This document shows positions 39,810 to 40,829 of a stretch of 64,000 nucleotides of DNA, piece by piece. The stretch lies in the IMG/VR virus record IMGVR_UViG_3300025831_000403; one strand, given 5' to 3'. This stretch comes from a virus. Each line of letters starts with the position of its first letter. The first letter of the stretch is position 1. Below the pieces are notes generated by a model, which was not told where the DNA came from, ran no database searches, and saw only the letters and a list, made by a program, of their open reading frames with translations. The translations under genes were made by a program, and so were the position numbers.

Positions 39810-39900
39810 TGGCGGAAGCTGTGGGACTTGAACCCACAAACCCATTTCTGAATCAAACAGTTTTCGAGGCTGTGCTGCTCACCGATACAGTAGAGCTTCC
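39810..39900 (-). tRNA. tRNA-Ser(CGA)
   Basis: GGAAGCT/AGCTTCC acceptor, loop CTCGAAA, long variable arm, TTCAAGT, GCCA end. Confidence 0.88.
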
Positions 39901-39953
39901 TAATTGCTTATCTTAATAGTATTAATAACAGTCAATATTTAATAACTATAATT

Positions 39954-40044
39954 TGGCGGAAGTGGGGAGAGTCGAACTCCCAAGGCGCTATTAACACTCG
40001 ACTGCTTTCAAAACAGCTACCATCACCAATTGGTTTGCACTTCC
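39954..40044 (-). tRNA. tRNA-Ser(TGA)
   Basis: GGAAGTG/CACTTCC, loop TTTGAAA, long variable arm, GCCA end. Confidence 0.9.
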
Positions 40045-40067
40045 TAATTCATAACATAACAAAAATT

Positions 40068-40160
40068 TGGCAGTGAGTGTGGGATTCGAACCCACGGTTC
40101 CTTTTAATGGGAACGGTTTCTTAGCAGGAAACTGGTTTAAACCAACTCACCCAACTCACT
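40068..40160 (-). tRNA. tRNA-Ser(GCT)
   Basis: AGTGAGT/ACTCACT, GTTTC-CTGCTAA-GAAAC, long variable arm, GCCA end. Confidence 0.93.
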
Positions 40161-40169
40161 ATAAAAACT

Positions 40170-40257
40170 TGGCGGAAAGTGTGGGATTCGAACCCACCGA
40201 CCCATTTCTGAATCATAGATTAGCAGTCTATTAGCTTTGCCACATGCTTCACTTTCC
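40170..40257 (-). tRNA. tRNA-Ser(GCT)
   Basis: GGAAAGT/ACTTTCC, ATAGA-CTGCTAA-TCTAT, GCCA end. Confidence 0.9.
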
Positions 40258-40277
40258 TAATAACTTAACAATACTCT

Positions 40278-40367
40278 TGGCGGAAAATGTGAGATTCGAA
40301 CTCACGGAACCTTTAACAGTTCGGCAGTTTTCAAGACTGCTGGCATAAACCACTCGCCCAATTTTCC
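40278..40367 (-). tRNA. tRNA-Ser(TGA)
   Basis: GGAAAAT/ATTTTCC, GCAGT-CTTGAAA-ACTGC, GCCA end. Confidence 0.94.
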
Positions 40368-40395
40368 TTAAAATAAAACCCTTTCAATACTGACT

Positions 40396-40486
40396 TGGAG
40401 GAATCGGTGAGATTCGAACTCACGGACCTTTTTACAGACCTACACCTTTCCAAGATGTTACAATAAACCAACTCTGCCACGATTCC
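40396..40486 (-). tRNA. tRNA-Ser(GGA)
   Basis: GGAATCG/CGATTCC, ACATC-TTGGAAA-GGTGT, long variable arm, TCCA end. Confidence 0.9.
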
Positions 40487-40500
40487 AAAACTTAAATTGT

Positions 40501-40607
40501 AAAGTGCAACAGGATTCGAACCTGTGAGTCCTTTCGCATATATTACAGAATATGTAGCTATTAGAACTTTATACTGTGTCACCCTTAAATCTCTCAGGCA
40601 TACACTT
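40501..40607 (-). tRNA. Atypical tRNA-like gene, expanded anticodon region, anticodon undetermined
   Basis: AAGTGTA/TGCACTT acceptor, CCTGAG...AAGGG D arm, ACAGG-TTCGAAT-CCTGT T arm; about 20 extra nt centrally; no encoded CCA. Confidence 0.65.
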
Positions 40608-40632
40608 AACAATTTAACCTCATAATCACAAT

Positions 40633-40668
40633 AAAAAAAGCACTCTGTTTTTACCTGAGTGCTTTTTG
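40633..40668 (-). terminator. Intrinsic terminator (attenuator) between leader peptide and tRNA array
   Basis: CAAAAAGCACTC-AGGTAAAAACA-GAGTGCTTTTTTT. Confidence 0.9.
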
Positions 40669-40691
40669 AATTCTTTAATTAACTTAAATTT

Positions 40692-40763
40692 TCAGCAATA
40701 AGCACCCCTGTTCATTGAAGAACTTGATGAGCTACTAGAACTGGAAACTTTTACGAAAAACAT
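40692..40763 (-). CDS. Serine-rich attenuator leader peptide MFFVKVSSSSSSSSSSMNRGAYC
   Basis: AAGGT RBS, ATG, ten consecutive mixed Ser codons TCC AGT TCT AGT AGC TCA TCA AGT TCT TCA, TGA stop 24 nt before the terminator. Confidence 0.88.
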   Translation of the reverse strand: MFFVKVSSSSSSSSSSMNRGAYC

Positions 40764-40800
40764 TTTTATTAACCTTTTGTATTTAATTTAATATGATTGA

Positions 40801-40829
40801 ATTATGACACATTAAAAACTTTTTGTCAA
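40801..40829 (-). promoter_or_regulatory. sigma70 promoter of the leader/tRNA-Ser operon
   Basis: TTGACA-N17-CATAAT on minus strand. Confidence 0.8.

Follow-up and report, generated by a model that had tools for sequence, protein, structure and literature searches.

Leader-peptide attenuation is textbook knowledge for amino-acid biosynthesis operons, with the leaders trpL, hisL, pheL, thrL, leuL and ilvL, and for pheST with its pheM leader. The hisL leader carries seven His codons, and to our knowledge serine is not among the amino acids for which a leader is known. Here we describe a locus on the minus strand of a 64,000-nucleotide (nt) stretch of viral DNA, IMG/VR record IMGVR_UViG_3300025831_000403 (the whole of this stretch is called the window below), in which a promoter, a short open reading frame (ORF) with ten successive Ser codons and an intrinsic terminator precede an array of six tRNA-Ser genes (Table 1). 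The arrangement is likely to be a working ribosome-mediated transcription attenuator that gates the tRNA-Ser array. With the classical attenuators it shares a promoter-proximal mini-ORF, a run of regulatory codons, mutually exclusive pairings of segments 1 and 2, 2 and 3, and 3 and 4 (1:2, 2:3 and 3:4), a stop codon placed for the masking of segment 2, and an intrinsic terminator before the regulated genes; its homopolymeric Ser run resembles the seven-His run of hisL, and pheST offers a precedent for leader control of genes of the translation apparatus. However, the classical attenuators regulate enzymes or a synthetase, whereas the window locus would regulate tRNAs, its output being the very molecule that is sensed, and it is probably carried by a phage-like element. 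The regulated genes here neither make nor charge serine, which sets them apart from the classical set and leaves the mechanism unaffected; this mismatch, with tRNA genes as the regulated genes, is the point of novelty. The locus is thus a probable instance of a known mechanism put to a new use, with tRNA genes as the target. An earlier sequence-only reading of this DNA had stated that no case of attenuation gating tRNA genes was described, and this statement held in a full-text literature search, which turned up classical attenuators, T-box and ABCF leaders and the two partly similar systems described below, but no published account of ribosome-mediated attenuation of tRNA genes; older work in subscription journals, for instance on short ORFs of the T5 tRNA region, may have escaped it.

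T-box riboswitches likewise sense the state of a specific tRNA and choose between terminator and antiterminator before genes of the translation apparatus, but their contact with the tRNA is direct, made by a specifier codon together with the T-box motif, and needs no ribosome, whereas the window locus has an ORF that is predicted to be translated. No T-box riboswitch was matched by Rfam even at E <= 10, and among the Rfam leader families (Trp, His, Thr, Leu, Phe) the best match to the locus was Phe_leader, with 16.8 bits against a gathering score of 55 and driven by the terminator, so that a known RNA family or a T-box could be ruled out as an explanation of the leader. A switch that works independently of translation, with a protein or a tRNA binding the leader RNA in a T-box-like manner or as in protein antitermination and with the ORF being incidental, is extremely improbable. 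Any ligand could in principle choose between 2:3 and 3:4, but neither a T-box nor another cis-regulatory family appears even at a weak score, and the presence of an ORF with a good ribosome-binding site and start codon, together with its Ser run, would be left unexplained. Two further systems resemble the locus in part. In mycobacteria, polycysteine leaderless short ORFs attenuate downstream operon genes (bioRxiv 10.1101/834739) and have in common with the window locus a single-amino-acid codon run in a short upstream ORF, but they are reported to be leaderless, to control cysteine-related protein genes and to involve no classical intrinsic-terminator switch before tRNAs. In Bacillus subtilis, the speed of the ribosome on the Ser codons of sinR serves as a sensor (PMC3862929); the effect is reported to be on the protein yield from the coding sequence of sinR itself, with no leader ORF, terminator switch or tRNA genes.

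Table 1. Features of the Ser-codon leader and the tRNA-Ser array, in the order of transcription (window coordinates).
Feature	Position	Strand	Description
Promoter, sigma-70-type	40801..40829	minus	-35 TTGACA 40829-40824, 17-nt spacer, TG-extended -10 CATAAT 40806-40801
AAGGT, Shine-Dalgarno-like	40772..40776	minus	9 nt 5' of the leader ATG
Leader ORF	40692..40763	minus	23 codons and TGA stop, MFFVKV-S10-MNRGAYC
Ser-codon run, regulatory codons	40716..40745	minus	ten in succession; together with 40746-40750 forms segment 1
Segment 2, GGGGTGCTTATTG	40696..40708	minus	last leader codons, abuts the stop codon; partner is segment 1 or segment 3
Segment 3, CAAAAAGCACTC	40657..40668	minus	5' arm of the terminator
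Segment 4, GAGTGCTTTTTTT	40633..40645	minus	3' arm of the terminator, followed by seven T
tRNA-like element	40501..40607	minus	acceptor, D and T arms intact; 43-nt insert in place of the anticodon arm; no CCA encoded
tRNA-Ser (GGA)	40396..40486	minus	ARAGORN, Rfam
tRNA-Ser (UGA)	40278..40367	minus	ARAGORN, Rfam
tRNA-Ser (GCU)	40170..40257	minus	ARAGORN, Rfam
tRNA-Ser (GCU), second gene	40068..40160	minus	ARAGORN, Rfam
tRNA-Ser (UGA), second copy	39954..40044	minus	Rfam 39.6 bits; ARAGORN at relaxed threshold
tRNA-Ser (CGA)	39810..39900	minus	ARAGORN, Rfam

The leader promoter matches the sigma-70 consensus at 11 of 12 positions, has an extended -10 element and ranks in the top four sites over 18 kb. 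It is one of 12 near-perfect sigma-70 promoters in the window (at least 11 of 12 matches), where simulation gave 6.4+-3.0; a 17-nt spacer is found in ten of the 12, none lies inside an ORF on the same strand, and several stand just upstream of gene starts, for example those of ligA and nrdA. Translation signals of the type seen in front of the leader are likewise a property of the whole replicon, since AAGG occurs within 20 nt upstream of 27% of the ORF starts as compared to a background of 4%, in the form AAGG(T/A) and at Shine-Dalgarno spacing. The promoter, the AAGGT ribosome-binding site and the Ser-rich ORF had all been proposed in the sequence-only reading and are present at those positions, the promoter with a TG before its -10, the AAGGT in the form that prevails across the replicon and the ten Ser codons drawn from five triplets. 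In order, these codons are TCC, AGT, TCT, AGT, AGC, TCA, TCA, AGT, TCT and TCA, i.e. AGT and TCA three times each, TCT twice and TCC and AGC once each, and they form the only run of more than five Ser codons in any frame of the window, a length far in excess of chance. The mix mirrors the Ser codon usage of the window ORFs (TCT 35%, TCA 29%, AGT 26%, AGC 6%, TCC 3%, TCG 1%), and the leader would therefore represent a small sample of the element's own demand. Moreover, the leader codons call on three decoding classes of the array, GGA (reading TCY), UGA (reading TCA and its neighbours) and GCU (reading AGY), so that a shortage of any one of these classes should open the whole array.

The array had been read as seven tRNA genes, six of them for serine. 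The six tRNA-Ser genes stood up, being found above the gathering score by Rfam and at the relaxed threshold by ARAGORN (five at the default), and every one of them encodes its CCA; the seventh gene did not, since this element is tRNA-like only, with 27.6 bits on the Rfam tRNA model against a gathering score of 29. The sole ARAGORN call on it was a poor intron-containing Val(GAC), and its fold was no more stable than those of shuffled sequences. It may be a processing handle at which RNase P cuts the leader from the tRNAs, which is speculative, or alternatively it may be a decayed tRNA. Directly downstream of the array lies an ORF on the minus strand (39369-39725) that contains an in-frame TGA, a triplet serving as a stop elsewhere in the replicon, and that has its own promoter-like site TTGTAT-N17-TATAAT.

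A spacer of 23 nt separates the leader ORF from the terminator hairpin, which together with its T7 tract (40668-40633) has a folding energy of -15.3 kcal/mol (z -4.2, with none of 200 shuffles equally stable) and ends 25 nt before the tRNA-like element. Segment 2 (40707-40696) can pair with segment 3 (40668-40657) at 11 of 12 positions, one of them a G.U, to give a duplex of -11.7 kcal/mol; this core duplex was matched in only three of 2000 dinucleotide shuffles of the upstream 120 nt and in two of 1066 genomic windows of 120 nt. The antiterminator fold containing 2:3 reaches -14.7 kcal/mol, and the competing 1:2 hairpin, a candidate pause site in which Ser codons 1-6 and 8-9 are paired to segment 2 and the stop region, reaches -16.2 kcal/mol (11 of 500 shuffles equally stable). 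In the fold of the whole leader, the terminator is accompanied by a hairpin that joins the Ser codons to the ORF end. To follow the order in which the segments emerge, folds of nascent RNA were computed with only the RNA made before segment 4, starting 13 nt downstream of the ribosomal A site. With the A site on any of Ser codons 1-9, all 11 of the 2:3 pairs formed, and with the A site on codon 10 nine of them did; with the ribosome at the UGA, segment 2 was covered, no 2:3 pairs formed, and the addition of segment 4 gave the terminator. The models thus contain every structural feature expected of a four-segment attenuator, in the right geometry. The terminator, the 11-of-12 pairing with its 5' arm and the mutual exclusion of the two structures had been put forward from the sequence, and each was borne out: the hairpin is where it was placed and is more stable than any shuffle, the pairing is real and rare among shuffles, and in the nascent-RNA folds the antiterminator excludes the terminator and is masked only by a ribosome at the UGA.

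From these elements we infer the following course of events. Host RNA polymerase would be expected to start at about 40794 from the leader promoter, and a ribosome would load onto the 23-codon leader. When Ser-tRNAs are plentiful, this ribosome would cross the Ser run to the UGA and its footprint would cover segment 2, so that segments 3 and 4 pair and transcription ends at T7, leaving an RNA of ~160 nt. A shortage of any tRNA for TCY, TCA or AGY would instead stall the ribosome in the Ser run and break 1:2, and the freed segment 2 would take up segment 3 before segment 4 exists, which would let the polymerase read on through the tRNA-like element to the six tRNA-Ser genes. Should the leader not be translated at all, 1:2 and 3:4 would form and transcription would stop. 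Since the products of the array are the molecules that the leader measures, the circuit would amount to a direct negative-feedback homeostat of Ser-decoding capacity, presumably tuned to the replicon's own Ser codon usage. We lean towards regarding the locus as a self-measuring tRNA operon, in which slow decoding of a test ORF, itself a sample of the element's Ser codon usage, turns the array on and the products of the array turn it off again.

The same RNA switch could also be driven by the serine pool, with the leader sensing a fall in seryl-tRNA charging and acting as a metabolic timer for the array, for example when the element's serine hydroxymethyltransferase (SHMT) drains serine into one-carbon units. 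The SHMT gene (49265-50410) lies on the same replicon at a distance of 8.4 kb, and classical attenuators respond to charging. A precedent for the sensing of serine depletion through Ser codons is given by B. subtilis sinR (PMC3862929). Nevertheless, we consider this explanation quite unlikely, because additional tRNA-Ser gives no relief from a lack of serine and the output would not match the input, and because the SHMT gene is on the other strand in a separate transcription unit; the sequence alone cannot tell a response to the serine pool from a response to tRNA supply. As extra tRNA cannot cure a lack of serine, a shortage of tRNA-Ser is a more coherent trigger than serine starvation, and the most sensible trigger would be a shortage of usable host tRNA-Ser caused by a mismatch in codon usage, by host shut-off or by a tRNA-cleaving defence.

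A comparable arrangement was found elsewhere when IMG/VR was scanned with a two-T-arm pattern, which returned 25 loci. On a 437-kb IMG/VR contig with 38% GC (L030:60-447), a promoter, a ribosome-binding site and the leader ORF MKTTLMTTSYYYSYYSH are followed by a terminator with a T-run and by an array in the order Ser-Ser-Tyr-Tyr-Ser. In nascent-RNA folds, a stall at the first Tyr codon sequestered the 5' arm of this terminator, while a ribosome at the stop codon left it free. The contig thus appears to carry an independent analogue, verified here at the level of these folds, which is unrelated in sequence to the window locus and follows the same logic. Both loci combine a switchable terminator with a mini-ORF that spells out the amino acids carried by the downstream tRNAs, but in contrast to the mixed Ser/Tyr leader the window locus is monovalent, with ten codons for one amino acid before six cognate tRNAs, which makes it an unusually clean example. 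In the analogue, terminator and array are separated by a second promoter-like site, TTGACA-N17-TAGAAT, and the cassette may therefore not be the only source of array transcripts there. Among 23 other tandem tRNA-Ser arrays (16 from metagenomes and 7 viral), 21 had no Ser-dense frame upstream, which argues that the leader is specific and not a generic by-product of tRNA neighbourhoods. Likewise, no convincing leaders emerged when 12 further tRNA-bearing loci were scanned for codon matches, and such a design is therefore not shared by all phage tRNA arrays.

Two other kinds of arrays were encountered in these comparisons. In two viral contigs with 62-63% GC (L024:4630-4820 and L028), a Ser-Ala-Tyr-Ser-Ser array is preceded, at a distance of 21 nt, by a 34-codon ORF with many Ser, Ala and Tyr codons; this is suggestive, but no clear ribosome-binding site or terminator was seen and the pair was not counted as an analogue. 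In AT-rich metagenome contigs (L051:5200-5600 and L044:1-300), three to four tandem 3' halves resembling tRNA-Lys stand beside one intact tRNA-Lys, each half being followed by a hairpin and a T-run, which looks like a set of repeated integration-site scars or an array of tRNA fragments.

The element itself is found nearly unchanged in numerous metagenome assemblies, where its contigs reach 0.2-1 Mb. Three of these (L001, L002, L064) are 100% identical to the window over leader and array, and a fourth (L065), which ends at 40648 within the terminator, shows a single difference in 4.2 kb, the frameshifting loss of 26 nt (38902-38927) in a gene for a 165-amino-acid ankyrin-like protein beside the array. 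The leader was also identical in strain variants traced through the downstream gene, and the cassette is unchanged in every copy read that spans the leader, in three separate metagenome samples. A fortuitous or decayed arrangement that has no function is very improbable in the light of these copies and of the coincidence of five independent features, each of which is rare. In its favour it can be said that there is no conservation evidence and that AT-rich DNA is full of promoter-like sites, of which 137 were found in the window at a loose threshold where 134 were expected.

Several points nevertheless weigh against a functioning attenuator. The reading has no comparative support, as the searches for a diverged relative with the array were all negative: in IMG/VR and the GTDB species genomes with the exact leader pattern and with two neighbouring proteins, in IMG/VR with an alignment of the upstream protein, and in JGI metagenome contigs with a three-T-arm pattern, which picked up unrelated Ser arrays only, most of them bacterial-looking. 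Homologues of the upstream 107-amino-acid protein (60-66% identity) sit in tRNA-free loci, which means that synteny is not kept, and three Ser-only arrays of huge phages (L036, L022, L029) have no such leader. Within the locus, the terminator has a loop of 11 nt and A-U pairs in half of its stem, and TCG, which is read by the tRNA-Ser (CGA) of the array, is not sampled in the leader. Tight coupling of transcription and translation is needed in the host, and some bacteria lack such coupling. Finally, equilibrium folds of the full-length leader retained the terminator whichever footprint was masked. Masking the ribosome footprint, which had been suggested as a check, was thus uninformative in its equilibrium version, which always returned the terminator, while the nascent-RNA version followed the attenuator logic. 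In the trp attenuator, the choice between terminator and antiterminator is likewise kinetic, and since the terminator is always favoured at equilibrium, regulation of the window locus would have to be kinetic as in trp.

The stability of the terminator in all equilibrium folds would also suit a stand-alone small gene or small RNA, in which a Ser-rich peptide or the ~160-nt RNA has a function of its own and the tRNAs are transcribed by constitutive leak-through or from a weak promoter of their own; neither the 2:3 complementarity nor the agreement between Ser codons and Ser tRNAs would then have a regulatory meaning. Promoter, mini-ORF and terminator form a complete unit on their own, and the second promoter-like site of the Ser/Tyr analogue shows that a cassette need not be the only source of array transcripts. 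We regard this explanation as unlikely, given the negligible chance that ten codons match the amino acid of all six downstream tRNAs, and given a 2:3 pairing that is rare, abuts the stop codon and fits the ribosome footprint. Moreover, the promoter scan listed no strong promoter between the terminator (40633) and the first tRNA, and annotation of the surroundings revealed no partner genes for a modified peptide near the leader. A ribosome-mediated attenuator, as proposed in the sequence-only reading, is supported by the computational tests run on sequence and folding, all of which came out as predicted.

Attenuation by a ribosome presupposes a bacterial setting, and the nature of the carrier is hence of importance. 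The window has a GC content of 22-33%, and its genes encode LigA, NrdA (with an intein), NrdB, SHMT, many ankyrin-repeat proteins, a Macro-NADAR fusion, an ADP-ribosylglycohydrolase, a T5orf172-helicase, the RNA-repair protein RlaP, a type IV pilin-like protein, LemA, an RlpA-like protein, nucleases and a split C5 methylase, next to many ORFs without a Pfam or PHROG match. Ankyrin repeats, 25% GC and an intein in the ribonucleotide reductase (RNR) would be compatible with a giant virus of eukaryotes, a carrier that would make ribosome-coupled attenuation impossible; this origin was rejected in view of the enrichment of AAGG(T/A), the sigma-70 promoters, the enrichment of intrinsic terminators (terminator-like sites occur at ~3 times the shuffled expectation) and the type IV pilin-like gene. 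A genetic code with TGA as a sense codon (code 4 or 25), under which the leader would run through the terminator, was ruled out by stop-codon statistics: translation with table 4 made hardly any ORF longer, TGA is the stop of 4 of 51 long ORFs, and only one case of a TGA between two long open stretches exists in the window. The closest phage relatives of two test proteins showed 40-49% identity. No virion genes were seen in ~84 kb, comprising the window and ~10 kb walked past each of its ends, and neither flank added further tRNA genes. Judging by gene content, the carrier most probably is a large phage, or a phage-like element, with a bacterium of low GC content as its host.

Some further features of this replicon were recorded. 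The gene for the RNR large subunit (55519-59058, plus strand) contains an intein with a LAGLIDADG homing-endonuclease domain, and the C5 cytosine methylase (30750-32082, plus strand) is distributed over two ORFs, split by a TAA and a change of frame, which makes it a pseudogene or, alternatively, an enzyme split on purpose. At 22423-22560 (plus strand), a perfect TTGACA-N17-TATAAT promoter is followed almost at once by a 33-codon ORF, MIKKTTNTTKTTKTT..., which has no ribosome-binding site and is possibly leaderless, is rich in Thr, Lys and Asn and consists of a 9-nt unit (ACTACAAAW) in about nine tandem copies; the ORF is not followed by a terminator hairpin, and the orphan gene 22624-23718 lies downstream. 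This element could be a Thr-type leader, an iteron set or a slippage repeat. In two assemblies of the same carrier (L061 and L062), the first ~8.9 kb hold wholly different gene sets, to the left of a metallophosphatase gene and beyond window position 1, one with an RND-type transporter and Band_7 and the other with HU, an RNA ligase, cpYpsA and an HNH protein; the difference reflects either a hypervariable region, or the end of the genome, or a chimeric assembly.

With its single-amino-acid form and its generic sigma-70, ribosome-binding-site and terminator signals, the window locus is a good first candidate for experiments. If the proposed regulation is true, a mobile element would dose its tRNA genes by need and not constitutively, and there would be a direct, testable reason for the particular tRNA sets found in phages, while the leader would constitute a simple natural sensor of the decoding capacity for one amino acid. 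The carriage of tRNA genes would also be tied to the arms race in which host tRNA pools are contested. If the same applies to other codon-matched cassettes, large phages would possess a general on-demand tRNA supply, organized amino acid by amino acid, and such a supply system would read the translation state of the host, including the damage inflicted by tRNA-cleaving defences.

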